A DNA stretch of 34,013 nucleotides, taken from IMG/VR virus record IMGVR_UViG_3300027509_000029, one strand, 5' to 3'. Shown in pieces: positions 1,824 through 34,013 of this stretch. Numbering within the stretch: the stretch's first letter is position 1; each line of letters opens with the position of its first letter. The DNA is from a virus. The notes beneath the pieces were generated by a model that did no database searches, had not been told where the DNA came from, and was given only the letters and a program-made list of their open reading frames with translations. A program made the position numbers and the translations under genes.

Positions 1824-2069
1824 TCATCTCATCCCCGCCAACTCATCAACACCATCAGCGAGCGATCTCGCAGCCGCAGCATCCTCATCAGCATATCGAG
1901 CTAGCTCAGCATCAATGACAGCCAGCTCACGCTCTATCTCAGCATCCGTCATATCATCACTGTTATTGCAAAGATAATCCTGCAAATTAATCAACGATTT
2001 AACCGCAGCTTTCCGCTCTTCACTATCTACTACTATTTTATTCACTACTTTTTTCACTACTTTTTTCAT
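1824..2069 (-). CDS. Hypothetical acidic protein
   Basis: 81-aa ORF. Its start overlaps the stop of the upstream ATPase/GNAT gene by 4 nt (translational coupling). Confidence 0.6.
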   Translation of the reverse strand: MKKVVKKVVNKIVVDSEERKAAVKSLINLQDYLCNNSDDMTDAEIERELAVIDAELARYADEDAAAARSLADGVDELAGMR

Positions 2070-3172
2070 GTCTTATCTACTCCTATGGTTAACATGTACT
2101 CCTCAAACTCCTCATCACTCGGTATTACAAACTCATGCGATGTGCATACCCTCTCTGCATGCTTGAGCATATGCGCAGTAGTCTCTTTCGATTCGGCACC
2201 ACGCTCGCTCTTATAGTCCGTTCGTAGTTTGCGATTCTTAGATGTTGGCCTCCAAAAAATCGAATTTTCATGGTGCATACTCACAGCAACATTAGCTGCC
2301 TTAGAAAAATATCGACAACCACTCTCTACGATCAATCCCGCTACGGCATCATGAAAAGCATTGCCGATGCCCATGCCTTGATACTCAGGCAATACAACCA
2401 AACGATGCCCCCGCCAACCATTTTTAATATTGCGATGGGGCATTGCGATCACTGCTAAAAAAGCAACCGCTTTACCATCCATCAGCGCAGTCCAGGCATT
2501 TGCCGATTTATTAATAGCGCTATCTAGATAATGATGTCGGCTGAAACTCGGCCAAACCGCTTGCGCATCACACGGTCGGATCTTGAGAGACAACGGTTCA
2601 TGCCATCGCCGAAGGCACCTCCTTGCCGAAGCATCCAACCACTCACCCGCATCAACATCATAGATATGATCAGCTCGTAGGTACTCGCACACATCCACAT
2701 GACATGTCGCTACTACTAGATTACTCAGACCAGCTCTATTAATAGAGTGACACAATGCTCGCGCCGTTTGACGATCTACCAAACTCGTAAACTCATCTAT
2801 AAACTCAGAGCCGCGACTCAGAGCAACAGCAACCTCGGCACGATGACACTCACCGTTAGAAACTGTATTAAGAGTTCGACGCCATGTCGGTATAGAGCGC
2901 AATCCTGCTACTGTCAGCCAGTGCTCAGCATCCAACCCCGACTCAAACAATGTCCATATGGGCACATCACGATCCAAAACCGTCTCAACCATCCCCCACG
3001 ATCTCAGAATCGTCGATTTGCCACTGCCTGAGGCTCCCACTACGATTACTACGCCCTCAGGTGGTCTTGTCGGTATCTCTATCGCAGACTCAACATGATC
3101 AGCACTGAGATCATATTTTGCGAAAATCTCAGCACCATCACCACCATCACGCCCAGGCATCTCAGTACTCAA
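2066..3172 (-). CDS. ABC-type ATPase domain fused to GNAT acetyltransferase domain
   Basis: 368-aa ORF. N-terminal half: Walker A GASGSGKST, signature-like VSNGECHRAEV, Walker B EFIDEF followed by SLVD, and an H-loop-like ATCH. C-terminal half: GNAT motif A-like LVVLPEYQGMGIGNAF. Confidence 0.7.
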   Translation of the reverse strand: MSTEMPGRDGGDGAEIFAKYDLSADHVESAIEIPTRPPEGVVIVVGASGSGKSTILRSWGMVETVLDRDVPIWTLFESGLDAEHWLTVAGLRSIPTWRRTLNTVSNGECHRAEVAVALSRGSEFIDEFTSLVDRQTARALCHSINRAGLSNLVVATCHVDVCEYLRADHIYDVDAGEWLDASARRCLRRWHEPLSLKIRPCDAQAVWPSFSRHHYLDSAINKSANAWTALMDGKAVAFLAVIAMPHRNIKNGWRGHRLVVLPEYQGMGIGNAFHDAVAGLIVESGCRYFSKAANVAVSMHHENSIFWRPTSKNRKLRTDYKSERGAESKETTAHMLKHAERVCTSHEFVIPSDEEFEEYMLTIGVDKT

Positions 3173-3399
3173 GAGCGATCACCATCAGCAGCATCTAAAC
3201 TACCCAGCTCACGCTCATACTCATCCTCGAACGCTTGCACATGCTCAGCACGTATCGACTCATAGAGAGTGTTGTATTGCGCCTCATCAGCCCGCTTGTA
3301 ATGCTCAAGCATCTCCTTGTGTACTAACCGCCGCAGCTTGCTAGTCACGTTATTACGTAGATTGCCTTGCGCACTGCGAGTTGTATTATTCGTTGTCAT
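3169..3399 (-). CDS. Small protein, first gene of the leftward early operon (distant member of the small paralog family)
   Basis: 76-aa ORF. GAGGAGAA sits upstream of the ATG on the minus strand. 4-nt overlap with the downstream gene. Confidence 0.6.
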   Translation of the reverse strand: MTTNNTTRSAQGNLRNNVTSKLRRLVHKEMLEHYKRADEAQYNTLYESIRAEHVQAFEDEYERELGSLDAADGDRS

Positions 3400-3534
3400 A
3401 TGATTCTCCTCTGATTGACAATAATACTTATGATGAGATTTGCAGCGCGTACTCGCATTATTACCCGCTCTCAGAACTATCTCCTATGAATAATTATCAC
3501 TAATAGATACTTGACAGATTTTGTAAATATCTGT

Positions 3535-6747: not shown

Positions 6748-7080
6748 TTATTTGCCCAAATCCATGCGCATCTGTAGCACTCTGATGTGTGCATCGGGAT
6801 CACTATTATACTCATCGAATATTCGAGTTATCACAGTATCATCTAATACGTGCCGCCGTTTTATCTCCGTTCTGTATTTGATGAGAGCATTGGTTTCGCT
6901 CGGATCGCCATCACTATTATCTTGTACATTAGCTGCAAGATCATCATACATCACTGCTAGTAACAGATCCGGAATAGTGCGTACATCAATCTTCTCATCA
7001 TCATCATGATCAAGATTTGCAAATATCTCATAATCATCTAATATCTTTTGCTTTTCAGCCGCCGTCATTGGGGTGCTCAT
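6748..7080 (-). CDS. Highly acidic small protein, unknown function (antisense cassette gene 2)
   Basis: 110-aa ORF with about 25 D+E versus about 13 K+R by my count. Its stop codon abuts the TerL stop codon with zero spacer. 4-nt overlap with the upstream ORF. Confidence 0.6.
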   Translation of the reverse strand: MSTPMTAAEKQKILDDYEIFANLDHDDDEKIDVRTIPDLLLAVMYDDLAANVQDNSDGDPSETNALIKYRTEIKRRHVLDDTVITRIFDEYNSDPDAHIRVLQMRMDLGK

Positions 7081-7600: not shown

Positions 7601-9130
7601 AGCAAAAACTTTCAGACCAAAGATGCAACACAAGCAAACATCCTTCTAGATTATTACTTGGGCTGTCAGAAAACTCATCTCGTTAAAATGCTGGACGGTC
7701 TGTGGGAAAACCAATCGGGCAAGCGTGAGGAGTGGCGAGAGAAGGGCATTGTCCCCCGCACACGCAACATTACTAAATCAATCATAGACAAATCAGGATT
7801 GCTCTTTAATGATCGTCCGACGTTAATGGTGCGCACTGGTGAGACTACTGTGCAAGTCGATCCTACTCTTAATCAATTGCTAGAGTCATCATCATGGCTT
7901 GAATTTTTTCAAACCGTTGACGCCTTTACACGACTATTAAAATCAACTGTAGTGCTCACACAACGATACATACCTAACGAAACTACTACGGTGGGTGGAG
8001 AGTATCGCTATAACGCGTTCAATGGTGAAGGCCTTAGGCTGTTATGCATGCACCCAGGTAATTGTGTCATTGAGACAGATCCGCTTGATAACGTCATCGA
8101 ATTTGCATATCTCATAGACGTACCCGATGAGTTGAAAGATCCACACAATAAAGATGCGTGGGCATATCGGCATATGACAGCATCTACTATCACAGATGTT
8201 TTAGTGCAGCAGACTCATACAAAAGAGAACAAAGAAACCATTATATCGACGGTTGAGAATCCTGATGCTATTTGTCCTGTCACTGTATTTTACGATACTG
8301 CAAAATCATATCAAAGGATGTTCCCCCACATACCTGAGGATCTCGCAGAGCTACAGGCGATGTACAATATCTCGCTAAGTGACACCGAATTTTCAATAGC
8401 GTGGGCGAAAAATTCTACACTTTTCACCGACAGAAAAATCGAATCAACGGACGGCAAACCAGTTAGTAATATTACGCCTGACGACACTGCATACAGCGAT
8501 GCAAATTATCTTAAAACATCACAAGCCAACTCAAAGGGCGAGAAATCACTCGGTGGCCTTGGATCAATTGTGCAGATGGAACCCGATCCCGATGGCAAAG
8601 CACCCTACATTGATTTTAAAGCACCCAACGTACAACTCCAACCATTGAATAGCATCATCGAGGAGATTGTAAAAGCCGTTGCAAGCGATTTCAGTGTCAA
8701 CCTACGTAATGCAAGCACGGCACAGGCATCAAGTGGATTCGCTTTAATTGTTGAAAGTATGGATAACCTAAATCTACGTGAGCAACGAGCACACTTTTTT
8801 TGCGCTGGATTGAAACACATGCACAAGATTTTAAAGGTGCTATATCCAGAACTTATTCAAGGCGAGCTAGAGGTGACATTTGCAAAACCTGCATTGCCGA
8901 TCAACAAAACCGAGCAGCAACAGTTGTGGCAACAAAAGATATCGAGCGGGCTTGCAAGCAGAAAAGATTATTTCATCCAAGTCGAGAACATGACAGAAGC
9001 ACAAGCGATGGCAAAAATCACTGAGATAGACTCACTCGCATCATCACCTCAAGTCAGTCTATCAACCGTTGAAAAGACTGATGATAGTGCGGATGATGAA
9101 AACGCAAACGCTAAGGATGAAAACGAATAA
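7589..9130 (+). CDS. Portal protein
   Basis: 513-aa ORF, the first plus-strand gene after TerL and ahead of scaffold and capsid. Acidic C-terminal tail. Call based on position and size. Confidence 0.7.
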   Translation: MTLNSKNFQTKDATQANILLDYYLGCQKTHLVKMLDGLWENQSGKREEWREKGIVPRTRNITKSIIDKSGLLFNDRPTLMVRTGETTVQVDPTLNQLLESSSWLEFFQTVDAFTRLLKSTVVLTQRYIPNETTTVGGEYRYNAFNGEGLRLLCMHPGNCVIETDPLDNVIEFAYLIDVPDELKDPHNKDAWAYRHMTASTITDVLVQQTHTKENKETIISTVENPDAICPVTVFYDTAKSYQRMFPHIPEDLAELQAMYNISLSDTEFSIAWAKNSTLFTDRKIESTDGKPVSNITPDDTAYSDANYLKTSQANSKGEKSLGGLGSIVQMEPDPDGKAPYIDFKAPNVQLQPLNSIIEEIVKAVASDFSVNLRNASTAQASSGFALIVESMDNLNLREQRAHFFCAGLKHMHKILKVLYPELIQGELEVTFAKPALPINKTEQQQLWQQKISSGLASRKDYFIQVENMTEAQAMAKITEIDSLASSPQVSLSTVEKTDDSADDENANAKDENE

Positions 9131-9208
9131 ATAAACATATCTGAGTATTGTAGATGGTGGATTCTATTTGCAAATAAACTCAACGCATAATACTGGAGAG
9201 TATGAGTA

Positions 9209-9832
9209 ATGGAAGTAAACACAAATGAAGTAACAGCCGACGAATCTGTAACAAGTGACGTTGAATCGGTAGAGACCGAAGTAGTAGAGAATAATGATGT
9301 TGATGTTGAACAATTGATACGTGAAAGAGATGCAGCTATTGCAGAGGCAACTAAACAGCGTTCGATCAAGCAACGGGTAACTAAAGAACGTGACGACCTC
9401 AAGCAATCATCAAAATCAAACGACGACACTACGAATGATGACAAATACAAATTGCTATGGCAGGAAACCAATAAAGAATTGGAGACTATTCGTAAGAGCA
9501 GCAGAGACACACAAATCAATGCAGCATTGACCGAGCAGTTATCTAAAAGTGGAATCATGTCGGATGCGATGGAAGCAGGACGAAGGTTAGTAGATCGCGA
9601 AATGATCGAATTTGATGAAAGTGGAAAGCTAGACGATATGTCAGTGCTCGGAGCAATCCAAGCGCTTAAAGCACAATCCTCATTTTTATTCGAGCGAAAG
9701 ATTGCACCTACTGATGTTAAAAATCCTACATCTAAAAATTTGGCATCAACAGAAATGACAAGAGCGGATTTCGACAAGCTATCACCTGAGGAAAAAAGTA
9801 AAAAAATGCTCAGTGGTACGACACTCGTTTAA
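9209..9832 (+). CDS. Scaffolding protein
   Basis: 207-aa acidic, charged and helical ORF between the portal and major capsid genes. Confidence 0.7.
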   Translation: MEVNTNEVTADESVTSDVESVETEVVENNDVDVEQLIRERDAAIAEATKQRSIKQRVTKERDDLKQSSKSNDDTTNDDKYKLLWQETNKELETIRKSSRDTQINAALTEQLSKSGIMSDAMEAGRRLVDREMIEFDESGKLDDMSVLGAIQALKAQSSFLFERKIAPTDVKNPTSKNLASTEMTRADFDKLSPEEKSKKMLSGTTLV

Positions 9833-11528: not shown

Positions 11529-11863
11529 TGAGTATTCGCATAGCAGAGCTACGCAATGTCGTTACATTTCTAACGCATACAAAGATCCCCAATGATTCAT
11601 ACGGCTATGATTATGATTGGTCAGAAGATATAAAAACATGGGGGAAATTAGAAACACTCTCAGGCACAACATTTCAAAACGGCGAGCAAGAAAATCTTGC
11701 GGGTAGTCATCGCCTAACAATTCGATATCGCGAAAATATAAACAAAGATCATCGTATACATTGTGCAGACAAATATTTCAACATCGTGCAAATGGATCGT
11801 CTAGTAGATGGTCGTGCAATGTATTTGGAAATACTCATAGATGAGGACAAGATCCATGTCTAA
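11528..11863 (+). CDS. Head closure / head-tail joining protein (SPP1 gp16-like)
   Basis: 111-aa ORF with a TAATG overlap. The pattern ...WGKLETLSGTTF...HRLTIRYRENI...IHCADKYFNIV fits the head-closure family. Confidence 0.7.
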   Translation: MSIRIAELRNVVTFLTHTKIPNDSYGYDYDWSEDIKTWGKLETLSGTTFQNGEQENLAGSHRLTIRYRENINKDHRIHCADKYFNIVQMDRLVDGRAMYLEILIDEDKIHV

Positions 11864-12158
11864 ATCATTACACAAAGCACTCATGGAAATGTATGACGAT
11901 CTTGATGGCCTTAGAGATGATATCGGTGAGGGTATCGTAAAGGGCGTTAAACAAAAATCATTTGTCGATACTGGAGAATTACGTGACTCATGGTTTTGGG
12001 AGGAGGAAGGATTGTACTCAAGCGATGAAAATGTCCCAAAAATATTGGCCAACGAGTTTGGCACTGAATCCATGCAAGGCAGCGCCGCAGTGAGGAGAAC
12101 AATGAAAGAACTACCCAAAATAATAAAGCAAGTTAAACGTAAAAAGAGAGGTAGATAA
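11856..12158 (+). CDS. HK97 gp10-like neck/tail-completion protein
   Basis: VDTGELRDSW and ANEFGTE motifs. The ATG at 11856 has AGGA 9 nt upstream. The track start at 11841 is also possible. Confidence 0.7.
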   Translation: MSKSLHKALMEMYDDLDGLRDDIGEGIVKGVKQKSFVDTGELRDSWFWEEEGLYSSDENVPKILANEFGTESMQGSAAVRRTMKELPKIIKQVKRKKRGR

Positions 12159-12586
12159 TGTCAAATAGACTATTGCAAAATGACCTTGATGAGCTATTGC
12201 AGAGCATCGCAGAGATGCCAACTATTCATTTAGAAAATACTCGTCTGACATTAAAATCCGATCAAGCAAACTCTACTCGCGCAACTCGATATTGTCGTAC
12301 AAAATTATATCCAACATCAACGATATCTGAGACAACAGCAGGTGGTTTTGATTTGCTGACAGGATTCTATGAAGTGTCGTTATTTCTGCCGTTCGGTGAT
12401 GGTATTGATGAAGCGAATTATTTTGCGGATAAAATAATATCCACTTTTAAAATTGGAACAATACAAACCAGCAATCTAACAATACGCATAGAGAGTCATG
12501 ATCGTGGCGTCGGACAAGAGTTTGATAATTATTACATGCTACCTGTAAGCGTAGATTATCTATGCCATGTGCAACGGCACGATTGA
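12158..12586 (+). CDS. Putative tail terminator protein
   Basis: 142-aa ORF with a TAATG overlap. It lies directly before the tail tube gene. Positional call. Confidence 0.5.
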   Translation: MSNRLLQNDLDELLQSIAEMPTIHLENTRLTLKSDQANSTRATRYCRTKLYPTSTISETTAGGFDLLTGFYEVSLFLPFGDGIDEANYFADKIISTFKIGTIQTSNLTIRIESHDRGVGQEFDNYYMLPVSVDYLCHVQRHD

Positions 12587-12628
12587 ATAAATATAAACAT
12601 AATTAATTAATTAAATTAGGAGTCTCAT

Positions 12629-13537
12629 ATGAGCAACATTTATAGTTCAGGTAGTACAACAGCGACGACTTTTGTTCGTGAGGCATCGTTTGGCGTCACG
12701 CCAGCAACACCAACAATGCAGACAATACCTGTAAAAAATAACACGATCACCCTAACTCAGGATAATCTTTCCTCGGACGCTGTGAGTGGAGATAGGATGC
12801 GACGATTTACTCGCAGAGGTAATACAAGTGTGGCGGGAAATCTCGACATAGAGTTGGCGCATGAGACATTTGATGAGCTGTTAGAGGGCTTGCTGATGGA
12901 CCGTTGGACAGGTGATGTCATCAAAGTATCGAACACAGCATCAAGCTTTTCTATCGAGCGTGGAGATAAGACAAAAAACATTTATGAACTTTTCACCGGT
13001 TGCGTAATTGATAGTGCAACATTTTCAGTATCGCTCGGCTCACTTGTCGAAACTGGATTTACATTTATCGGAAAAGGTGGAGTCGATAGTGCTACTAGTG
13101 TTGATTCAGATCCAACGCCAGCGCCTGATAAACAACCGATGTACCAGGCTGATTGTGCAGTAAAAATCGACGGCCAAAAAGTAGATTATGTACAAGACAT
13201 CTCATTGACTATTTCCAATAATGCCGTTGCAAATAATTCCATAGGTTTTGATAGCGCCAGTGCAATCAGCACGAATATGGTAACTGTGACAGGTACTGCT
13301 ACATTTTATCTCAAGGATTTAGTAGCCAAAAACTGGTTCACTAATGAGACTAGTACAAGCATGGAATTAGTGCTTGATGATGGCAAAGGGAACACTCTCA
13401 CTATACTGATGCCCGAGATTGATTGGCAGACAGCTAACATGGCTCAGAGTGGATCTGATACTCGAACACTGACGATGGATTTTGAAGCTGTATACGACAG
13501 CGGCATCAACTCTGTATTGCAACTAACACGCTCATAA
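12629..13537 (+). CDS. Major tail (tube) protein
   Basis: 302-aa ORF with AGGAG 7 nt upstream. It is followed by a terminator and then the chaperone and tape-measure genes. Confidence 0.7.
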   Translation: MSNIYSSGSTTATTFVREASFGVTPATPTMQTIPVKNNTITLTQDNLSSDAVSGDRMRRFTRRGNTSVAGNLDIELAHETFDELLEGLLMDRWTGDVIKVSNTASSFSIERGDKTKNIYELFTGCVIDSATFSVSLGSLVETGFTFIGKGGVDSATSVDSDPTPAPDKQPMYQADCAVKIDGQKVDYVQDISLTISNNAVANNSIGFDSASAISTNMVTVTGTATFYLKDLVAKNWFTNETSTSMELVLDDGKGNTLTILMPEIDWQTANMAQSGSDTRTLTMDFEAVYDSGINSVLQLTRS

Positions 13538-18123: not shown

Positions 18124-21100
18124 TAATTTAATAGTAAGAGACGTACATTTTTACGGTCAATTAAAATCAAAATATGGTGCGAAAAAATCTTTTCCCGCTA
18201 GTCGTATAGATCTATTGTTAACAGGCATTGCCATAGATGAGCCATCGCTGCTCGATGATATTGCAGCTGGTGAATATCTTGTTTATGTCGGTGATTTGAA
18301 AGATGAGAATATTGTAGATCTTGATGATCTGATGATCCCTTTTTCGGATAACGAAACACAGATACATTTGTATGAATCATTGACAGCAGATAAGAGCAAA
18401 GTAGGAAAATTAGTATTTGGTACTGCTCTTATTGCGTTATCGTTTTATGTGCCAGGCGGAGGCATGCTTGGTCTGTCGCAGGCGACAGTACAAACGGCAC
18501 TGCTCTCAACGGGTGCGAATTTGGCTTTAGCGGGAGCAACCGCTCTGCTTGCTGATCAACCACAAAATACCGATGAAAACGATCAATCAATATTCTCAAG
18601 TGGTCTCAATAATGCAAATGCTGGGTCTCGAATTCCATTGATTTATGGCGGTCCAACTCGCGCGCAATCAACTATTGTAGATCTTGAGGTATCGAGTGAT
18701 GAGGTGCTGCAAAATGACAATGGTGATGATATTCTAGACTCTAAGATTGAGCATATTTCGCGTTCAGTGCATATCATCGGAGAGGGTACTATTGCAGGAC
18801 CAACGCTTAACGGTGTGCTCACAGATGAGCTATTAGAAAACAGTGTGTACGTTAATGATATTAGTGTGTCGAATTTTCAGGATAGTCAAACCGAAGTACA
18901 TTTTAGAGATGGTTCAACAGCATCTAATAATAATTCTATAGCTGGATTTACTGAATCATCGCAGCTTATAAATGCAAATATAGAGCTAGATGCTGGCACA
19001 TGGAAAGTGCTCAATATTCCTGCTGCTAATAATGCAGTAAAACTCAATCTTGCATGGGAAGGGCTTTATAGTGTCGGAGAGAAATACTATACCAGCCAAA
19101 CCGCGTTTGAAGTGCAGGTATCTGTTAATAACGGAGCATGGCAGACAAGCCCGAAATGGTTAAGGCGGCAAGAGAGTATGGTGTTAAAACCAATGGCTCA
19201 AACTTACAGAATTGATAGGCCCACAGCAGCGGATCAATCATGGCGTATACGAATAAAACGCTTAGTACAAGTTACCGAAACACGCAATGTTAAAAAGCAG
19301 GACATGGGTGCAAGCGGCGGCGGTGCGGGTGCCGTATACGTTTCAGTTGCACAAAATTTCGTAGAGAATCCTGCTGACGATAGTACTCATAGAAATAAAA
19401 AACACACTAATAAATTTTCTCTTGCATCTTATAATCTGATCGTTGGAAAGACTGCTAACAAATATACCGATTGTGCTTACTATGGTTTGACTATTCCCGC
19501 ATCCGATGTTGGTGGGAATCTGCGAGATATATGGTTCAAAGTTTGGGGTTTAGAGATCCCGTTGCCGAATAATTATTTTATTAATAGTTCGGCAGATAGT
19601 CGATTTAGTACAGCTGCCTTTACAGGGATGACAAAAAAGGGGGTGTCAAAAAATCCAGCTCTCATACTGCTTGATCTTATACGTAATCAACGGTACGCGC
19701 ATGGCAAACTAGTTGAGGATTATCAGATCGACTACGGCGCGTTCATGAACGCCGCTCGGTGGTGCGATAATTTGGTTGATAATATAGATGGTACTGGTCA
19801 AGAGAGACGATTTGAATTCAGTGGACAACTATCCACTGCTCTTAATAGTTATAAAATGATGGCAGCGGTAGCGTCGTCTTTCTACGGGAAAATTTTAATA
19901 CAAAACGGGGTCATATCGGTTGTATGGGACGATGATAATACTGACAGCATTGCAATCATTGACAACAACGATGTGTTAAATTCAAATTTTAGTTACAGCT
20001 CAGTACCCGACACATCAAGACATACACAGGTAGTTGGTAAGTGGCGTGACCCTGCCGAAAATTTCGAGCTATCATCTGTCGTTGCGAATCATGCAGATAT
20101 CGCTACTCGCGGATTATTGACTAATTCTGTGGAGTTAATCGGGTGCCAACGGTTAAGCCAGGCACAGCGGCACGTACAGTGGATCATGGAGAGCAATAAC
20201 CGTAATACTGAGTTAGTTGAGTGGCAAATGCCGATCACTGGAGCGCTATACAAAGTCGGGCAGATCGTGACTATCAGAGATGAGAATAATCGTTTTGATG
20301 CAACTGTTTATGACGTAAAATTTAAGATCACTGGCGTTGATATATCGAGTGATGGCGTCAATTATAAATTCCAAGGGCTATCGGTTGATGAGCAAAAAGT
20401 TGCGGCGTATAAAGTTCTAAACATAGATCCGGTTTCGGGACTGGTGGCAGGTGATATCAAAGTAGGTGGTGCAAATGTATCGGCTGTCCAAAATTTACAG
20501 ATCACCGAATCAACTATAGATCGTGTTAATTCGCGTGTGCTTATATGTGAGTGGGATGCACCAAGCAGTAACCCTCAGTTTCTACAGCACTACGTTGTAT
20601 TACACAATAGCCCAACAGGCCATCAAGAGCGATTTACAGTGACGCAAGAGCGCATCCAATTGAACGCACAGGATGAGGGATTGCACAGCGTGACAGTGTT
20701 CCCTGTGAGTGTGACTAGTGCTAATGGACCAAAAGAGACAACATCATTGTTTATAGAGGATGTGGCAACGTCGGGTAGCGCTCTCAATAATCCGCTTAAC
20801 TTGAGACTAGTAACAGGTAGTAGCTCTAATACAATATTCACATCTAAGGATTTACATGTTCGTTTTGATGATCCTGATAATATTGATAATGAAGCTGCTA
20901 ATCTTTCGCACTATCTAGTAGAGTTTAAAAAACAAAACGGTGATCTTTTGCACTCAACAAATGCCGTTGGGAATCGTGCTAGTTTTTTATATGAACAGAA
21001 TAGAGCTAGTAATGATGGTATTGCCGAACGTGTAATCGTTGTGGATGTAACTGCAATTGATGTGCTTGGACGATCTAGTACTAGTACATCGCGAACGTTT

Positions 21101-27187: not shown

Positions 27188-28342
27188 CTAGAATAGATCA
27201 GTAAATACCGACTCTGCTTTTTTACCGATCACGATATTTCGATCATATGGTTTAGAGTATCTGCGACTCGACTTTGGGTCGTTATGGCCCATCATGGTCT
27301 GTATTTCCTCTTGTGTGAATCCCGCACGGTGCAGACGATTGGCGAACGTATGTCTGAGATGATGCGGCACGGCTGGTTCTGCATGGTTCTGCGGGTTTAA
27401 TGCAGTGTCTAATTTTTCATCGGAATTTACATCAGTCTTACTGCATGCGCTGCGCCACCAGTACAAGCAGTGGTGGAGGTGGTTGTCATTTTTTTGATTT
27501 TGAAATACCCATTTTGAGTGTGCATTGGGTGCTGCCTTGCGGCGTTTGAGGATAGCCGCCACTTCGGGGAACATGTGTATTTCGATTGCTCTCTTTGTCT
27601 TGTAGTGCTTGAGCGTGATGATGTCTTCTGCCTCGTCGATATTAGCCCACGTCATTTTGCAGATATCCATATATCTTGCGCCTGTGTAATTCAGCATGTC
27701 AAAAAGATCGACATGGAGTGTCGTTGTAATAGCTGCTCGGATATCTCTGATTTCGCCATCGGTTAGAACACGCTGCCGTCCAGGGCCGATTTTTATTGTC
27801 GGGAAACCCGTCATCTTAGAGTGTGGTGAATTTTTGCCATCGCCAGCAGCGTAATTCATGAGTCTCTTGATGATCTGAAATTCGTCGTGGATCGTGGAGG
27901 CTTTATATCCCTCTCGTACTCGTTGTCTGTAGTGTGCTGTGAGCGTTGCGGCATTGATCTCACTCATATTAGTGATTTGCAGCGGCTGCACAGTGACAGC
28001 GGTGGGTTGGTTTGGGTTGCTTGGATCGTGTAGATAACGTGTAGCATTTGACGGTGAGAGAGTGCCTTGAATTCGATCACACACGCCGCTCATCTGTTGG
28101 TGATAGATGGCGCTTAGTACAGGTGGCGTGTGATCTTCAAGATACGCTGTGATCGTGTCTTTGAGAGTGATTTCCGATGCTGTGGGATTGTGACGCTCAT
28201 CCCTCAGTTTTGTTCTGAGCTGCCGCTCTATAGCCTCGGCTTCCGCTTTGATTCGAGTGCCTGAGCTACGCTCGTATGGGACACCATTTTCGGTAAATTT
28301 GATGTACCAATTCTTTGAGTTGGCTTTTTTGATGACGCTCAT
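27188..28342 (-). CDS. int: Tyrosine recombinase (phage integrase)
   Basis: 384-aa ORF. Box I: TGARYMDICKMTW. Box II: HHLRHTFANRL...MGHNDPKSSRRYSK (R..HxxR..Y). GGGAGG sits 6 nt upstream of the ATG. Confidence 0.9.
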   Translation of the reverse strand: MSVIKKANSKNWYIKFTENGVPYERSSGTRIKAEAEAIERQLRTKLRDERHNPTASEITLKDTITAYLEDHTPPVLSAIYHQQMSGVCDRIQGTLSPSNATRYLHDPSNPNQPTAVTVQPLQITNMSEINAATLTAHYRQRVREGYKASTIHDEFQIIKRLMNYAAGDGKNSPHSKMTGFPTIKIGPGRQRVLTDGEIRDIRAAITTTLHVDLFDMLNYTGARYMDICKMTWANIDEAEDIITLKHYKTKRAIEIHMFPEVAAILKRRKAAPNAHSKWVFQNQKNDNHLHHCLYWWRSACSKTDVNSDEKLDTALNPQNHAEPAVPHHLRHTFANRLHRAGFTQEEIQTMMGHNDPKSSRRYSKPYDRNIVIGKKAESVFTDLF

Positions 28343-28412
28343 GATGCACCTCCCGCTGCTGCCAGGTGGACAGCGGCGAGATGTGGCGTAACTGTAATAT
28401 TATTTGGCGGGA

Positions 28413-28813
28413 GTGTAGATAGATTTGTGGTAGCGGATGCAATGGTATAGATAGTGCACAGCGCGCTGTGGGTGGCGTTATTGTGCCTGTGCTGTGGCTG
28501 CTGTGGCTGTTGGTCTGTTGGGAGGTGTAGAGAAAATCGTAGATAGGTCGGGGTGGTGGAAATTGTAGATAGTGCTGAGGACCGCGCTACATATGGCTTT
28601 CGATGAGTTGGTGTAGGTGATTTTGACATGTTATTAAACGTTCTCTAAGTTTAGGAAAGATTCTATTGTGGCAGATTGTGCAGAGGAGTGCAGAAAGGGT
28701 GATGTTATTTGGGTCTGTGATCACATTTTAGGGCTGTGGTCCTTGTCACATATATTTGGGTTGGTAGGGGAGTGTAGAGAGTTTTTGGGATAGGTACGGG
28801 AGAGTGTAGATAG
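28413..28813 (+). promoter_or_regulatory. Field of direct (G)TGTAGA(T/G)AG repeats: candidate integrase arm-type sites / attP region
   Basis: GTGTAGATAG at 28413 and 28804. GTATAGATAG at 28445. GTGTAGAGA at 28525 and 28772. GTAGATAG at 28539. TTGTAGATAG at 28563. All are in one orientation, with a repeat-free gap at 28573-28771. Confidence 0.5.
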
Positions 28814-28972
28814 TTTGAGGGTGTTTTTGGGTGTTTTTGGGTGTGTGGCTGGGGTGTGCTGTGGTGTGCTGTGGTGGTTTTGGCAGCCGCCGCCCAGGCG
28901 CTGCGGGATGCTGCGGGAGGGTGCGCTGAGAGCGCCTGAGCGGCGCTAGCGGGGATGATGGTTAGAGGGTGG

Positions 28973-29185
28973 TTAGATGGTGGTTAGATCGTCAATGTTG
29001 GATTGTAGAGTTTGCTTTCGCTCATGTATCAACTCGTGCAAGATGCCGCGTGTGCGACATGCTGCGGGATATGATGGATCGGTGGTGGGTACGCCTTGCC
29101 ACTGCTTGTTTAATCGCTCCAGCTCTGCGACGAGTCGTTGCAGTGGCACCCTTTCGTAGAGATTGCGTGTAGTGTCGTAGTCCAT
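28973..29185 (-). CDS. Hypothetical small protein
   Basis: The track ORF (to 29242) begins with TTG. The ATG at 29185 has AAGGA 7 nt upstream and gives a 70-aa product (MDYDTTRNLYERV...). Confidence 0.5.
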   Translation of the reverse strand: MDYDTTRNLYERVPLQRLVAELERLNKQWQGVPTTDPSYPAACRTRGILHELIHERKQTLQSNIDDLTTI

Positions 29186-29266
29186 GTGAGTGTCCTTGTG
29201 TGTGGGTGTGGGTGCCATTTCCCCCGCTGCCGTCCAGGCCAAGCGGGGGTGATGGTTTGGTGGTGA

Positions 29267-29752
29267 TTAGAGGGTAGCTAGATCGTTAGTCGCGATGATC
29301 TGTTCGATGATCACTACAGCTATTTTTTTAATCTGAACGAGCATGATCTGATCAGCGAATAATGTTGACTCTAAAAATTTGCTAGTCGCAACGTCACTGG
29401 CGATGTACGGCATCGCTGTTCTATCGTCATCTATCAACATCGGATAGTTGAGTTCGAATTCGCTATGATGATCGAATTCAATTTCGATTTCTTGGTTATT
29501 CGGGTCGATTGATGATGTCACTTTGACCATGAAATCAATTTCGATTTCGTTCTCGCCGAACGGATCTGCGGTGGCAGTCAGTTCGATGTAATGTATCTGA
29601 TCGCCAGGCGGCTCATCTTTTGGATAGCGATGGATTCTGCCATTGTCGGATCGGTCTATAGTGAATTGCGATGCATGCAATTCATCAGACATAAATGATG
29701 ATAAGAGCACACGTGTGTTCGCGATGTTTACACGTATAAAAGTAGTAGACAT
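29267..29752 (-). CDS. Hypothetical acidic protein
   Basis: The track ORF begins at TTG 29788. The first ATG at 29752 gives 161 aa (MSTTFIRVNIANT...). No motif recognised. Confidence 0.6.
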   Translation of the reverse strand: MSTTFIRVNIANTRVLLSSFMSDELHASQFTIDRSDNGRIHRYPKDEPPGDQIHYIELTATADPFGENEIEIDFMVKVTSSIDPNNQEIEIEFDHHSEFELNYPMLIDDDRTAMPYIASDVATSKFLESTLFADQIMLVQIKKIAVVIIEQIIATNDLATL

Positions 29753-29918
29753 ATTGATATTTTTAATTTGCAGTGCCGAATCTGGCAACGGCCAAACTAT
29801 AATCAGGATGCCATTTTGATTATGAGGTATAGTTCAGGTTTTCTGCAAAAAACGGCAAAATAATGCATAATTTCAGGGTACTGAAAATGTTTGATGGTGT
29901 CTGTGATTCAATGCGGGT

Positions 29919-30215
29919 TTATTGTGATTTGTGGTGGTCCTGAGAGTCTGGTGGGGCTGGTGGTGTTGTTTTTGCTTGCTGTGGTAGCGAGGTGAGATGG
30001 TAATGCTCGCAGTGGACGCACAGGTACGGGTTCTGATATGCACGGTTAATGGCTTCTGCAAAGCGTGTGGCCGCTTTAGCACTCACGAACAGTCTCTTAC
30101 CGCTTCGTGGGCAGGTCTGATCTGCTGGCGGTTTTCTGAACTGTTTAGGCAATGATTTAAAAATCCTGTCTTTTTTGCTGTATTTCGAGCGTTTGGGCAT
30201 CGGTATAATCTCCAT
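29919..30215 (-). CDS. Small basic Cys/His (zinc-ribbon-like) protein, possible DNA-binding regulator
   Basis: 98-aa ORF. The second ATG (30200) has GGAGA 10 nt upstream. Basic N-terminus (PKRSKYSKKDRIFKSLPKQFRK), CP...YLCVHCEHYHLTS motif, Pro/Gln-rich tail. It is the first leftward gene next to the regulatory block. Confidence 0.6.
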   Translation of the reverse strand: MEIIPMPKRSKYSKKDRIFKSLPKQFRKPPADQTCPRSGKRLFVSAKAATRFAEAINRAYQNPYLCVHCEHYHLTSLPQQAKTTPPAPPDSQDHHKSQ

Positions 30216-30305
30216 GTATAGAGATTATTTAGGGACTGAGAGGAGGGGAGAGGAGAGGAGGATACCTGGCAGCAGAGCGTGGCAAAAGAGCGTGTTATTT
30301 TGATT

Positions 30306-30412
30306 ATGCTGAGAGCACGCTTGTATTATGGTGGGGGACTATGCTCAGATCATGGTTGTATTATGTTATTGACCATGGTTGTATTATGTTATTTTGATTA
30401 TGCTCAGAGCAT
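30306..30412. promoter_or_regulatory. Left cluster of 13-bp palindromic operator-like sites ATGCTC(W)GAGCAT
   Basis: ATGCTGAGAGCAC at 30306-30318 and ATGCTCAGATCAT at 30341-30353 are imperfect. ATGCTCAGAGCAT at 30400-30412 is perfect. Confidence 0.5.
30369..30395 (+). promoter_or_regulatory. Candidate rightward promoter: TTGACC-N15-(TGT)TATTTT
   Basis: -35-like TTGACC at 30369-30374. Extended -10-like TGTTATTTT ends at 30395. The perfect palindromic operator at 30400 would cover the predicted start. The 15-bp spacer is short. Confidence 0.35.
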
Positions 30413-30415
30413 GCT

Positions 30416-30442
30416 TTGACCATGCTTGTACTATGTTATTTT
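30416..30442 (+). promoter_or_regulatory. Candidate rightward promoter: TTGACC-N15-(TGT)TATTTT
   Basis: TTGACC at 30416-30421 and TGTTATTTT ending at 30442. Same architecture as 30369-30395. Confidence 0.35.
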
Positions 30443-30470
30443 GGGTTGTGCAGCGCTGCGGGGGCTGAAT

Positions 30471-30608
30471 ATGGCCAGGTGTCTCAGCGGCATTGTGCAA
30501 GATTTTTTCTGTGGGGTGGGTCTCGGTTGGGGGGTGTCCCACGTCTCACTATGCAATCTTGTAGTCCTTGTCACACTTTGGCAAAATGTAAACCACTTAT
30601 CAAAATAA
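30471..30608 (+). CDS. Possible 45-aa hydrophobic peptide (very tentative)
   Basis: ATG at 30471 with GGGGG 6 nt upstream, about 20 nt downstream of the candidate promoter at 30416-30442. Product: MARCLSGIVQDFFCGVGLGWGVSHVSLCNLVVLVTLWQNVNHLSK. It contains a copy of the GTCCTTGTCACA box that is non-coding elsewhere, which argues against a real gene. Confidence 0.2.
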   Translation: MARCLSGIVQDFFCGVGLGWGVSHVSLCNLVVLVTLWQNVNHLSK

Positions 30609-30683
30609 AATAGTAAAATAAAATAGTCATAACATGATCTAAATCACATCCCCATCAATTATCTAAAAGTGTGACGTAATCAT

Positions 30684-30710
30684 TTGACATTATTGAGATC
30701 ATGTTATTTT
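30684..30710 (+). promoter_or_regulatory. Candidate rightward promoter: TTGACA-N15-(TGT)TATTTT
   Basis: TTGACA at 30684-30689 and ATGTTATTTT at 30701-30710. Confidence 0.3.
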
Positions 30711-31139
30711 GGATAGGTTTCTGTTCTTGCTCTATGTTTAGAGAGAACGGGATTTTTCTATATAAATCAAGGGTTTAGCAGCGCTGCGAGGGTAGGTATC
30801 TATAAAACTATCTATAGTCTATCTCGAAAAGGTGCAGAATATTTCTGGCGAGTTTGTGAGGTGATCGAAATAATGTGGATGATCTGTAATGGTTAAGATA
30901 ATGTTATTTTTGATTGGTTGATCACAGTGTGTAGACTCTCTCTGATATTTGCGGTCCTTGTCACATAGTTGGGAGATAGTTGGTATGATTCTTGCTAGTA
31001 AAAATAAAATGGTCATAAAATGGTGGGGATGGTCGGATGATTGACTATGTGAGACAGTTCAGAGAATAATCTGAAAAATGCTGTATAATTATAGGCGGTG
31101 GGAGGGCTGGATTAAAAAAAATAACATAGCCAGTAATAG

Positions 31140-31159
31140 TACTGTATGGATTTACAGTA
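31140..31159. promoter_or_regulatory. LexA (SOS) box 1: TACTGTATGGATTTACAGTA
   Basis: 17/20 match to the E. coli-type consensus TACTGTATATATATACAGTA. Both CTGT and ACAG arms and the N8 spacing are intact. Confidence 0.75.
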
Positions 31160-31188
31160 CGACCTGATTTTGCCCATGACAAAATACA

Positions 31189-31204
31189 TGCAAGAATCGT
31201 GCCA
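31189..31204 (-). promoter_or_regulatory. Sigma-54 (RpoN) promoter, proximal copy: TGGCACGATTCTTGCA on the minus strand
   Basis: Exact match to TGGCACG-N4-TTGCW. GG and GC are separated by the canonical spacing. Confidence 0.7.
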
Positions 31205-31234
31205 AGATTGTAAAATTGCCCATGACAAAATACA

Positions 31235-31250
31235 TGCAAGAATCGTGCCA
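31235..31250 (-). promoter_or_regulatory. Sigma-54 (RpoN) promoter, middle copy
   Basis: Identical TGGCACGATTCTTGCA on the minus strand, 46 bp from the proximal copy. Confidence 0.7.
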
Positions 31251-31281
31251 AGATTGTAAAATTGCCCATGACAAAAATACA

Positions 31282-31297
31282 TGCAAGAATCGTGCCA
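31282..31297 (-). promoter_or_regulatory. Sigma-54 (RpoN) promoter, distal copy
   Basis: Identical TGGCACGATTCTTGCA on the minus strand, 47 bp from the middle copy. Confidence 0.7.
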
Positions 31298-31334
31298 ACA
31301 TTATAAAATTGCCCATGTTATTTTTACAAGAGAA

Positions 31335-31354
31335 TACTGTATGGATTTACAGTA
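31335..31354. promoter_or_regulatory. LexA (SOS) box 2: TACTGTATGGATTTACAGTA
   Basis: The same 20-mer as box 1. Confidence 0.75.
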
Positions 31355-31355
31355 G

Positions 31356-31384
31356 TTGATTGCTGTATGGATTTACAGTAGTAT
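31356..31384 (+). promoter_or_regulatory. Candidate LexA-repressed rightward sigma-70 promoter TTGATT-N17-TAGTAT
   Basis: -35-like element at 31356-31361 and -10-like at 31379-31384. LexA box 3 occupies the whole spacer and overlaps both hexamers. Confidence 0.4.
31361..31380. promoter_or_regulatory. LexA (SOS) box 3: TGCTGTATGGATTTACAGTA
   Basis: Same 16-bp core CTGTATGGATTTACAG. Its centre is 26 bp from box 2. Confidence 0.7.
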
Positions 31385-31707
31385 CCGAAATTGCCGATGA
31401 CAATTAGTCGTAGCACAGAACGATATAAGAGTGTTGGAAATAATGTTATTTTTGTGAGATTGTTGGCATTATAGGGGGTTTGTGACAAGGACCGCAGCGC
31501 TGTAAGGTATTATTTTATTTTGAGAAGTGGTCCGCAAATACGCGGGATTTGAATTGACAATATTGAAAAATTTTGTTTCAAGGCGTGAAATAATGTTTCC
31601 TCAGAGGAAAGTATGTCATTTAGGATGCAATTATGTCATTTAGGATGACATTTTAAAATAACACAGTCAAAGATAGTCAAAGATAGTCCCTGCCATTGCG
31701 CTGCTGC

Positions 31708-31753
31708 CATGCTCTGAGCATAGTCCCTGCCATGCTCTGAGCATAGTCCCTGC
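31708..31753. promoter_or_regulatory. Right cluster: 2 x 23-bp tandem repeat, each with the perfect palindrome ATGCTCTGAGCAT
   Basis: The unit CATGCTCTGAGCATAGTCCCTGC occurs at 31708-31730 and 31731-31753. The palindromes are at 31709-31721 and 31732-31744. Confidence 0.5.
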
Positions 31754-31780
31754 CAGGCGCGCTCTTGTGGTGATGGATGG

Positions 31781-31830
31781 CTCAGGATAGCTTAGGATAG
31801 CTTAGGATAGCTTAGGATAGCTTAGGATGG
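31781..31830. repeat. 5 x 10-bp tandem repeat CT(T/C)AGGAT(A/G)G (iteron-like)
   Basis: CTCAGGATAG, CTTAGGATAG x3, CTTAGGATGG. The 10-bp period places all copies on one helix face. Confidence 0.9.
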
Positions 31831-31940
31831 CTTTTGTTGAAATTTTCGGTGGTGGTGGGTTCAATCCACTGCACATGCACAACAGCTAAATCATCTTAAT
31901 AATGAGGAAATAGACCGTTTTCTGGCATATAACCCTACAG

Positions 31941-32040
31941 TACAAATATATATATATTAAAAAAATAAAATATCTCTACATATATACTATTAAATAACGT
32001 CTATTTTATCTATTTTATCTATTTTTTTTATATATTATAT
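31941..32040. other. AT-rich tract with (TA)n and 3 x CTATTTTAT: candidate DNA-unwinding element of an origin
   Basis: Almost pure A/T over about 100 bp. CTATTTTAT occurs at 32001, 32010 and 32019. The tract lies between the iteron-like repeats and the helicase gene terminator. Confidence 0.4.
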
Positions 32041-32082
32041 AGACGAAATAGAGCTATCTCAAATCAACATCTCAGATAACGA

Positions 32083-32103
32083 CAAAAAGCCCAAAAAAGG
32101 GCT
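32083..32103 (-). terminator. Rho-independent terminator after the helicase gene
   Basis: Minus strand reads AGCCC-TTTTTT-GGGCT followed by TTTTT, 34 nt after the stop codon. Confidence 0.65.
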
Positions 32104-32136
32104 CTTGTCTTACCATCAAATTTAACACAATATCCA

Positions 32137-33837
32137 TCAAAATTGCAGGATATTATCCTCATCTGCACCATTACCGCCGTCCAGGCGGCGACTACCACCA
32201 TCCTCATCAATATCATTGTAGATCTCACCAATGTGGCCCTTACGAAACTTCCATCCTCGTATACGATTAAGATTGCCACTGTACGCATTGGACACATCTA
32301 TACCACGCTGCACCAATTGCTTTTTTAATTCCTTGTCACCACTTGAATACAACCGTCGCTCTACACACCACTCAGTATATTGACTCAAAAAGTCGGTTAA
32401 CTTGATTGTAGCTCTACCATCCTCAACGATTGCAGAGTCAATGAACGTTCCTAACTTATCCTCACCACTTCGCCACATTGCAGTATCTACCTTCACAACT
32501 TTAGGAATATCAAACTGTTGACCATTAGCCATGTATGCAATCGCACCTGCAATGCACCAATTTAGAATCCCTGATTGCTCAAACGTTAATTTCTTACTGA
32601 TCAACTCACGATCTTTCTCAGCATCACTGAAAACTCGATTGAAATTCAGCAATACCAAACGCCGCCATATACCACCATCAGTACAAGCAACCGACGGCAC
32701 GTAATTAGTATTAAGAATCATCGTTGCCACGCACGTCAATTCAAACGGCTCACCACGAATTGGCCTGGCAGCCATCCCCTCATCCGAATCAACCATCCGC
32801 TTCACGATTGTATCGTCCAACGCATTGCTAGACTTTCGACCATCAGAACTACCCAACTCGTTCATGATGATCATGCGAACACCTTTCAACATTGCTAGAG
32901 CATATTGCTTTTCTGATGTAGAGGCACCTGTGATCACCTCAGGACTTACCGACGCTTTATAACCACCATCGCCAGCTTTACCTAAAATCGGCTCTAAAAC
33001 TTTCGCAAATGTCGATTTACCATTGCTACCATCACCACAAAAAAAGAACATTTTCTCTTTTGAATTACCGACCAGGCAACTGCCTGCAATCTGTTGCAAC
33101 AGATCAACTTTCGTCTCATCACCTTCCATGATCTCAAGCAATGTCTGTTGCCATATTGGACACTCAGCACCATCCTCATACTCCACCTCAGATGATTTTA
33201 ACAACATGTATTCCGGCTTATCTTTAATAAATTTGCCATCTCGCAAATCAATCACACCATTTGCCACACCAAAAAATTGTCCCTTACGATCAAACTCATT
33301 GTAATGAATCGGTATACCACTCAATGTCGCCGCCACATCAATAGAGCGCTCCTTAGTCCCTTTATTAGATGATGCTGTAATCCATGCTCTGACACGCTTG
33401 AGCATCTTTTGTAGCATCGCCTTAGCAACCCTAGTACGCTCTGCTAACGGCGAGTCATCGCCCTTAGCGACAGCAGGGAGTGATACGTTCATACCTTCCA
33501 ATTCGTACCGATATTTTTTAATCGAATCAATAACCGATTTATATTTTCTCTCTATCTCAGAGTCTGTATTGAGGTTCCATTTCTGATTAGCCCAATATGC
33601 CCATTGTTTTAACTCAATGACGTATCGCACCTCATCATCAAACGATTTTACAAAAACCTCAGCATTGCCCGTTTCAGTCAATATCTCATCAAACTCAATA
33701 TCAAGCTCATTAAGCTTTTCCAATATCTCAATAACACCCGACCCCACTAACGCCTCTTCATTAGCTTTCTCTTGCCGACGCTCTTCTATTAAATCCTGCA
33801 ACTCCTCAGTCGTCATTTCCTCTCTGTTTTTAGTCAT
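32137..33837 (-). CDS. SF3 replicative helicase (P4-alpha / poxvirus D5 family C-terminal domain)
   Basis: 566-aa ORF with GGGAGG upstream. D5_N-like TGNAEVFVKSF...WAYWANQKW. Walker A: FFCGDGSNGKSTF. Walker B-like: VRMIIMNELG. The downstream NTNYVP...GGIWRRL pattern is typical of the P4 primase C-terminal domain. Confidence 0.8.
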   Translation of the reverse strand: MTKNREEMTTEELQDLIEERRQEKANEEALVGSGVIEILEKLNELDIEFDEILTETGNAEVFVKSFDDEVRYVIELKQWAYWANQKWNLNTDSEIERKYKSVIDSIKKYRYELEGMNVSLPAVAKGDDSPLAERTRVAKAMLQKMLKRVRAWITASSNKGTKERSIDVAATLSGIPIHYNEFDRKGQFFGVANGVIDLRDGKFIKDKPEYMLLKSSEVEYEDGAECPIWQQTLLEIMEGDETKVDLLQQIAGSCLVGNSKEKMFFFCGDGSNGKSTFAKVLEPILGKAGDGGYKASVSPEVITGASTSEKQYALAMLKGVRMIIMNELGSSDGRKSSNALDDTIVKRMVDSDEGMAARPIRGEPFELTCVATMILNTNYVPSVACTDGGIWRRLVLLNFNRVFSDAEKDRELISKKLTFEQSGILNWCIAGAIAYMANGQQFDIPKVVKVDTAMWRSGEDKLGTFIDSAIVEDGRATIKLTDFLSQYTEWCVERRLYSSGDKELKKQLVQRGIDVSNAYSGNLNRIRGWKFRKGHIGEIYNDIDEDGGSRRLDGGNGADEDNILQF

Positions 33838-33869: not shown

Positions 33870-33963
33870 ACTACTACCTACTACCAACTACCTACTACCA
33901 ACTACCTACTACCTACTACCAACTACCAACTACCTACTACCTACTACCTACTACCTACTACCA
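33870..33963. repeat. Tandem heptamer array, 13 x ACTACC(T/A), read as (A/T)GGTAGT on the coding strand
   Basis: Units start at 33873, 33880 and so on to 33957. The seventh-base pattern is T A T A T T A A T T T T A. Units 3-13 recur at 1-77 because of the terminal overlap. The array fills the gap between the AEP primase stop (83 = 33969) and the helicase start (33837). Confidence 0.95.
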
Positions 33964-34013
33964 AACCATCACGCCGATTTTTTCCGCTTAGCTATCAATT
34001 GCTCTATCGCATC
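33887..34013. repeat. Terminal overlap, copy 2 (identical to 1-127)
   Basis: See copy 1. Confidence 0.95.

Follow-up and report, generated by a model that had tools for sequence, protein, structure and literature searches.

The 34,013-nt IMG/VR virus record IMGVR_UViG_3300027509_000029, analysed over its full length and referred to as the window, represents a temperate phage carrying a tyrosine integrase gene (27188–28342, minus strand). Because bases 1–127 are a direct duplication (127 bp) of 33887–34013, we regard the contig as a circularly permuted complete genome of ~33.9 kb (33,886 bp), and the same phage has also been assembled in two other public samples. It encodes a D5-type primase/helicase (32137–33837, minus strand), a large terminase subunit and a head–tail module. 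Between integrase and primase lies an interval of ~3.8 kb (28340–32137, 11% of the genome) that is nearly gene-free, with gene callers placing a single open reading frame (ORF) of 161 aa in it, and that holds more than 20 repeat families. The right half of this interval contains, in a 1.9-kb gene-free region, three 20-mers, here termed boxes, which flank a 46-bp tandem repeat bearing three perfect minus-strand sigma-54 promoters. The boxes are probably operators for the host's LexA protein, of the gamma/beta-proteobacterial CTGT-N8-ACAG type, placed in the control/origin region of a temperate phage. From the motif we infer that the host has such a LexA; it would bind here and control a promoter of the region. 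The boxes and the elements around them are the following:

30953–30996, plus strand: sigma-54-like promoter with upstream motif, GGTCCTTGTCAC-N16-TGGTATGATTCTTGCT, pointing to the boxes and the origin (the promoter itself at 30981–30996)
31140–31159: box 1, TACTGTATGGATTTACAGTA (20.7 bits, heterology index ~5.3)
31154–31182, minus strand: candidate promoter TTGTCA-N17-TACTGT, read from the sequence, whose −10 element would be an arm of box 1
31170–31182: 13-bp imperfect dyad TTGCCCATGACAA, 10 bp from box 1, recurring at 31216–31228, at 31262–31274 and in part at 31309–31316
31170–31317: tandem repeat of 46 bp in 3.2 copies, with the sigma-54 promoters in its units (Tandem Repeats Finder score 273)
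31189–31204, minus strand: sigma-54 promoter P1, proximal, TGGCACGATTCTTGCA, exact TGGCAC-N5-TTGCW, predicted start ~31178
31235–31250, minus strand: sigma-54 promoter P2, TGGCACGATTCTTGCA, exact match
31282–31297, minus strand: sigma-54 promoter P3, distal, TGGCACGATTCTTGCA, exact match
31300–31329, minus strand: sigma-70-like promoter TTGTAA-N18-TATAAT (10/12), which begins 5 bp away from box 2 and directly adjoins P3
31335–31354: box 2, TACTGTATGGATTTACAGTA (20.7 bits)
31356–31384, plus strand: TTGATT-N17-TAGTAT, with TTGATT at 31356–31361, TAGTAT at 31379–31384 and box 3 as the spacer
31361–31380: box 3, TGCTGTATGGATTTACAGTA (19.9 bits), 26 bp centre-to-centre from box 2
31391–31403: dyad variant TTGCCGATGACAA, 10 bp from box 3, of which it is the partner dyad
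31665–32040: origin-like segment with iterons (10-bp x2.4, 23-bp x2.3 and GGATAGCTTA x5.9) and an AT-rich stretch

A first-pass annotation of this DNA, made from the letters alone, had reported the sequences and coordinates of the three boxes, and both proved exact when the sequence was read and searched by pattern. The whole window has three exact copies of the 16-bp core CTGTATGGATTTACAG (at 31142, 31337 and 31363), with no further copy at up to three mismatches, where 0.3 would be expected by chance. Boxes 1, 2 and 3 match the consensus TACTGTATATATATACAGTA at 17/20, 17/20 and 16/20 positions, respectively. The looser pattern CTGT-N8-ACAG is found four times in the window, against 0.5 expected; its fourth occurrence, at 18473, lies in a coding region, has a GC-rich centre and a heterology index of ~24, and is not LexA-like.

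Strength as LexA sites was scored with a symmetrised weight matrix built on an uncurated list of 29 E. coli sites. On this matrix the boxes reach 19.9–20.7 bits, whereas the training sites themselves go down to 12.4 and have 19.3 as their median, and the best non-box 20-mer in the 34-kb window scores 9.3 bits. The scan of the whole genome thus bore out the earlier expectation that the three boxes are its only LexA-type sites. Among 50 shuffled genomes, one reached 20.5 bits, and did so once. The heterology index of the boxes is 5.3–5.7, against 5.1 for recA and 4.2 for sulA on the same matrix; the E. coli LexA-binding population has been reported at ~7 and the non-binding one at ~22 (PMC12527982). 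In an E. coli-like cell, the boxes would be expected to act as strong operators.

They also resemble the chromosomal SOS boxes of E. coli recA, sulA, lexA and recN in being 20-bp palindromes of the form TACTGTAT-N4-(A/T)TACAGTA, and both their score and their heterology index fall within the recA/sulA range on this matrix. Several SOS boxes cluster at lexA and at recN, as they do in the window. Unlike their chromosomal counterparts, the window boxes are phage-borne, lie in a 1.9-kb gene-free region, flank sigma-54 promoters and share one unusual centre.

Independent evidence comes from a distant relative, the contig L011 and its fuller version L154, in which the whole head–tail module is syntenic with that of the window phage at 17–44% protein identity. 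Downstream of its replication genes, L154 has a 1.8-kb gene-free, repeat-rich region of the same kind as the window's, and the two non-coding regions have the motif families ATGTTATTTT and AAAATAAAATAGT in common. Both also contain a plus-strand, sigma-54-like composite with the same spacing, GRTCCTTRTCAC-N16-TGGYAT-N5-TTGC (in L154 at ~12363–12406, plus strand, with promoter TGGCATAGATATTGCA), a pattern that within IMG/VR is unique to this relative. The order of promoter, boxes and iterons is the same in the two phages. The identical 20-mer is present in L154 (20.5 bits), with TTGCCCAT 10 bp beyond it, and the same module of box, N10 and TTGCCCAT stands at boxes 1 and 3 of the window. At box 2, 23 nt including the flank …GTT are identical to positions 6759–6781 of L011. 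Fifty bases on from its first box, L154 has a second one, TACTGGTTTTATATACAGTG (reverse complement CACTGTATATAAAACCAGTA), which scores 22.1 bits and has a wholly different centre. Both L154 boxes lie within 90 bp, and the next best site in that contig reaches 10.7 bits. Two unlike, adjacent boxes that both fit the matrix are the best available argument that what these phages conserve is LexA-type recognition.

What L154 lacks is a leftward sigma-54 array or promoter near the boxes; 700 bp separate them from its plus-strand sigma-54-like promoter, which is upstream. Because L154 keeps the boxes without the array, their conserved role is not specific to the sigma-54 array. When further relatives with this region were sought by the composite pattern and among contigs with portal or primase homologues, only L011/L154 had the motifs.

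The exact 18-mer is present in 29 IMG/VR contigs, L011 among them, in about ten unrelated contexts. In a family of prophage contigs with 56–66% GC, the 20-mer sits between divergent genes, directly upstream of a gene with an SRAP (SOS response associated peptidase) Pfam domain (E = 1.4e-22), which is a classic SOS setting. A BLAST search with the segment from box 2 to box 3 against 50,697 cultured-phage records matched only phages of Vibrio, Burkholderia, Escherichia, Citrobacter, Klebsiella, Aeromonas and Morganella, the 292 Vibrio records being essentially one phage family. Actinobacterial and firmicute phages, of which there are many among these records, gave no match to the segment. Near-identical boxes in cultured phages are confined to gamma- and beta-proteobacterial hosts, which argues for recognition by LexA. 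In RefSeq, canonical SOS boxes hardly occur outside Gammaproteobacteria, and roughly two thirds of the prophages of that class have low-heterology LexA boxes (PMC12527982). As a separate observation, in the IMG/VR contigs L013, L017, L019, L021 and L026 (~60% GC) the 20-mer immediately precedes an HK97-type major capsid gene, after which comes a prohead protease gene; this suggests capsid genes fronted by an SOS box, possibly in satellite-like elements.

The boxes lie in non-coding DNA among sigma-54 and weak sigma-70-like promoters, and no strong sigma-70 promoter is clearly overlapped. Their geometry relative to the sigma-54 promoters had been described in the first-pass annotation, and all of its coordinates and distances check out. 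With the C of the GC element taken as −12 to estimate the P1 start, box 1 occupies +20 to +39 of that start, and boxes 2 and 3 lie 38–83 bp upstream of the distal TGGCAC, at about −64 to −109 from the P3 start. The roles of roadblock and enhancer that had been attached to these positions are geometric readings only, and L154 keeps the boxes without the leftward array. The rightward promoter described around box 3 does have both of its elements; it is weak, with 8/12 consensus positions, and falls below the promoter-scan threshold. The arrangement TTGTCA-N17-TACTGT seen at box 1 is found again at 31375–31403 for box 3, and neither instance is kept in L154.

Each 46-bp unit of the array opens with the TTGCCCATGACAA dyad, the partner of box 1, which overlaps each of the sigma-54 start regions. 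This dyad may be a sigma-54 enhancer or a second operator. Since its 46-bp recurrence places it ~46, 93 and 140 bp upstream of the P1 start, it is a likelier sigma-54 enhancer than boxes 2 and 3. A second assembly of the window phage (L031, ENA; at least 99.6% identical elsewhere) has two repeat units, at 12500–12620, and the difference from 3.2 units reflects either real copy-number variation or assembly collapse. Because L154 is without the leftward array and L031 has two units, the array looks like a recent, unstable, lineage-specific expansion of the segment after box 1, inside an older cluster of LexA boxes.

Searches of the non-structural ORFs with Pfam and PHROGs detected no autocleavable CI-type repressor with a helix-turn-helix and an S24 domain. 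The earlier statement that no CI-like repressor is recognisable thus agrees with the searches, and yet it is weak evidence because nearly all small regulatory ORFs are orphans; a 76-aa ORF (3169–3399) gives a faint winged-helix match (E = 0.06). A sigma-54 activator domain was not found encoded in the window, and no Tum/Ant-type antirepressor or gp7-like protein is recognisable in the phage. A good intrinsic terminator just after the primase gene (~32088–32103) marks the end of the early leftward operon, which also contains a 386-aa ORF (83–1243) directly upstream of the primase; the box region must therefore own its promoters. The usual divergent early region sits elsewhere, at 3399–3511. Leftward transcripts would need ~0.9–1.4 kb to reach the first plausible ORFs, of 98 aa and 161/173 aa, with the integrase gene further on. 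The 98-aa ORF is Zn-ribbon-like, has no ribosome-binding site and found four weak homologues among 1.8 billion representatives in an exhaustive HMMER search. The 161/173-aa ORF is acidic, and the AlphaFold model of its 161-aa form (predicted local distance difference test score, pLDDT, 39) was unusable; neither ORF has a family match in Pfam or PHROGs.

The position of the boxes suggests how LexA could act on this region. In a lysogen, LexA dimers would sit on all three boxes; upon DNA damage, RecA-stimulated self-cleavage of LexA would clear them and permit transcription from or through the region. Box 1 lies just past the P1 start and over the possible TTGTCA-N17-TACTGT promoter. Boxes 2 and 3 are just upstream of both the sigma-54 array and the leftward sigma-70-like promoter, and rightward transcription to the iterons would have to cross them. 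Candidate targets are the leftward sigma-54 promoters, with box 1 at +20 to +39 of P1; the leftward sigma-70-like TTGTAA-N18-TATAAT, 5 bp from box 2; the two weak leftward TTGTCA-N17-TACTGT promoters, with their −10 in an arm of box 1 or box 3; and rightward transcription toward 31665–32040, which might come from the promoter at 30981–30996 or from TTGATT-N17-TAGTAT.

The proposal of the first-pass annotation that the phage reads the SOS signal directly through host LexA gains from the LexA-like boxes, the LexA-type sites of L154 and the integrase; the specificity of the host's LexA is taken from the motif only. The further proposal of a combination with RpoN control agrees with boxes that flank perfect sigma-54 promoters, but this coupling is not conserved in L154. 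In its most elaborate form, the arrangement would be a two-input switch that replaces CI: LexA at the boxes would gate the sigma-54 array, and induction or origin firing would need both DNA damage and a signal from an enhancer-binding protein, perhaps with a phage co-factor at the box centre. We consider this switch doubtful.

Several observations weigh against the identification of the boxes as host LexA operators. The weight matrix derives from an uncurated list of sites, none of the boxes overlaps a sigma-70 promoter that is clearly strong, and the identity of the first gene downstream is uncertain. Neither a prophage copy nor a close relative turned up in genome, viral and metagenome collections. 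The phages with the closest primases, L001 (61% identity) and L035 (59%), are without LexA-type boxes; their corresponding regions have no sigma-54 element and none of the motifs shared by the window and L154, and consist of an AT-rich, iteron-bearing origin after the primase. A further point is the asymmetric centre ATGGATTT, which is common to all four perfect copies, three in the window and one in L154. In LexA sites its bases G9, G10 and T13 have frequencies of 0.19, 0.07 and 0.09, which marks them as disfavoured, and under a LexA-only model two independent sites would have all eight central bases alike in ~0.3–1% of cases. Moreover, a degenerate inverted copy in L154, TACTGATAATCCATATAGTA, keeps this centre with damaged arms and scores 8.5 bits. 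Over the same evolutionary distance, the 10 bp between box and TTGCCCAT have diverged to 4–5/10 identities. The idea that GGAT is a generally favoured centre was rejected: it accounts for ~4% among the 120 IMG/VR matches listed to TACTGTATNNNNTTACAGTA, mostly from one family, and the centres ATAA and AAAT dominate among those listed. The remaining explanations for the invariant centre are an added constraint, such as a second protein, a LexA co-factor or an RNA loop, or the recent exchange of a ~40-bp module.

An added constraint of this kind would be expected if the 20-mer were the operator of a dedicated protein, either encoded by the phage family or a LexA co-factor like GIL01 gp7, that also reads the centre ATGGATTT. 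In favour of this explanation, 20–23 nt are exact between phages at 20–45% protein identity, three LexA-disfavoured centre bases included; the degenerate L154 copy keeps the centre and not the CTGT/ACAG arms; and the spacing of 10 bp to TTGCCCAT stays fixed though the intervening bases diverge. The region is full of other family-specific repeats, and in GIL01 a phage protein does modify LexA–DNA binding (PMC4551915). However, the outer 16 positions match the LexA consensus at 15/16, which is very unlikely for an unrelated operator, and the second L154 box is equally LexA-like despite its different centre. The few non-structural proteins that the window phage shares with L154 showed no DNA-binding domain, and in unrelated prophages the 20-mer fronts an SOS gene. 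We therefore rate a dedicated protein as unlikely. A conserved loop would explain the invariant centre if the element acted as RNA, forming in a leader transcript a 7-bp hairpin with a conserved 6-nt loop that serves as a nut-like, processing or stability signal. A hairpin of −5.6 to −6.5 kcal/mol is predicted on either strand, and a leader from P1 would form two adjacent hairpins, dyad and box, of −15.6 kcal/mol (z = −3.8). Yet any LexA box is a palindrome and folds likewise, with modest stability here; boxes 2 and 3 lie upstream of the sigma-54 starts, the copies are all identical, so that covariation is absent, and Rfam gives no match. A function as RNA thus appears very improbable.

The location of boxes 2 and 3 raises the alternative that they, and box 1 with them, form an enhancer (upstream activating sequence) for an activator of the tandem sigma-54 promoters. 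Two dyads at about −64 to −109 from the P3 start would be in the usual enhancer range (roughly 70–150 bp upstream), as far as geometry goes, and sigma-54 promoters need such sites, none being otherwise annotated. This function is quite improbable, as the sequence fits LexA and no activator site known to us, box 1 lies downstream of all three sigma-54 starts and the TTGCCCATGACAA dyad is the better candidate; in L154 the boxes have no leftward sigma-54 promoter nearby, and the window encodes no sigma-54 activator domain. TyrR, CRP, NifA and LuxO sites were rejected on spacing (TGT-N8-ACA here) or mismatches. Finally, the boxes could be repeat copies without a function, their likeness to a LexA site being accidental. 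The three are repeats of one another and hence not independent, and 20.5 bits was reached once in the 50 shuffled genomes; nevertheless, the box is exact in a relative whose neutral sites are saturated and whose flanks have diverged where the box has not, and a second, different LexA-type site stands beside the L154 copy, which makes chance resemblance scarcely credible. Operators for host LexA hence stay our preferred identification of the three boxes.

That temperate phages can use host LexA directly is established, and the strategy seems to be widespread; at the PrstA promoter of CTXphi, the SOS signal is read through host LexA. In GIL01, LexA acts together with gp7 at the phage's P1 promoter (PMC4551915), SOS is read through host LexA for coliphage 186 tum and the Gifsy antirepressors (PMC3121763), and LexA boxes in prophages can be predicted with PSOSP (PMC12527982). 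The window phage resembles these systems in being temperate, in the strong LexA-type boxes of its regulatory region and in having no autocleavable CI that could be recognised; its induction would follow from LexA cleavage. Unlike them, its boxes stand beside sigma-54 promoters and an origin-like region. A link of DNA damage, LexA, a prophage and RpoN-dependent transcription, as proposed for the window, exists in Salmonella, where activation of RtcR requires LexA cleavage and Gifsy-1 genes (PMC9879122). The Salmonella link differs in being indirect, with prophage induction making the RtcR signal and the sigma-54 promoter being chromosomal. Full-text searches of the literature brought up no report of sigma-54 promoters flanked by LexA boxes; the closest case is this RtcR/Gifsy-1 system. 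To our knowledge, LexA repression of sigma-54 promoters and phage control regions driven by sigma-54 are essentially undescribed.

What is unusual in the window are perfect tandem sigma-54 promoters beside LexA-type boxes and a very large, repeat-dense non-coding control/origin region. If the arrangement is real, it would be a compact natural prophage locus that integrates DNA damage with a second, activator-borne signal, and it would offer a tractable 250-bp fragment for the study of repressor action on sigma-54 promoters. Should the two-input switch hold, a phage would couple LexA to RpoN, with the LexA-bound boxes placed between the origin and a plus-strand sigma-54 promoter that is conserved. 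If the boxes are ordinary SOS operators on weak sigma-70 promoters, this would be just another SOS-dependent prophage.

The window DNA gave no match against phages and plasmids, and at E ≤ 1e-20 the integrase has no homologue besides itself. Searches with primase and portal in viral, genome and metagenome collections yielded no more than two to three distant lineages, and tblastn with the terminase, primase, tail and GNAT/ATPase proteins reached many phyla at up to 40% identity. The AGGAG-type ribosome-binding sites in front of most genes led us to reject a Bacteroidetes host. Use of Shine–Dalgarno sites, the sigma-54 promoters and the gamma/beta-proteobacterial hosts of cultured phages with similar boxes are indirect evidence for a host LexA of this specificity.

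The remainder of the interval between integrase and primase is occupied by further repeats:

28408–28821: GAGTGTAGATAG-like repeat, 5–6 copies
28954–28989 and again 29242–29286: GATGGTGGTTA, 3 copies
28741, 30563 and 30953, inverted at 31481: GGTCCTTGTCACA
within the interval: GCAGCGCTGCG (3 copies), ATGTTATTTT (7 copies) and AAAATAAAATAGT (5 copies)

The origin-like segment at its right end includes an AT-rich block (31930–32040), and the GC skew flips sign within 31665–32103. The segment, which ends at the terminator and stop of the primase (~32088–32137), thus directly follows the primase gene. Neither Rfam nor tRNA scans gave matches in the window. Across 28340–32137 the plus strand is strongly G-rich despite the minus-strand ORFs there. 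The oriented 10–13-bp motif (C)ATGTTATTTT, counted together with AAAATAA(A/C)ATAGT, nearly its reverse complement, has 13 copies in window 30290–31660; this scattered motif resembles an extended −10 element (TGnTATTTT) and could represent multiple promoters or iterons. In L154, the ATGTTATTTT-type motif has ~20 copies at 11820–13360, some of them inside a 49-bp tandem repeat. The L154 portal gene (7900–9456) is on the strand opposite to the flanking head/packaging genes, with which it is co-oriented in the window phage, reflecting either an inversion or an assembly artefact. At 2066–3172 (minus strand), the early operon of the window phage has a gene for a 368-aa protein that joins a P-loop/ABC-like ATPase to a GNAT acetyltransferase (PHROG 11143), homologues of which are scattered among phages of many phyla.

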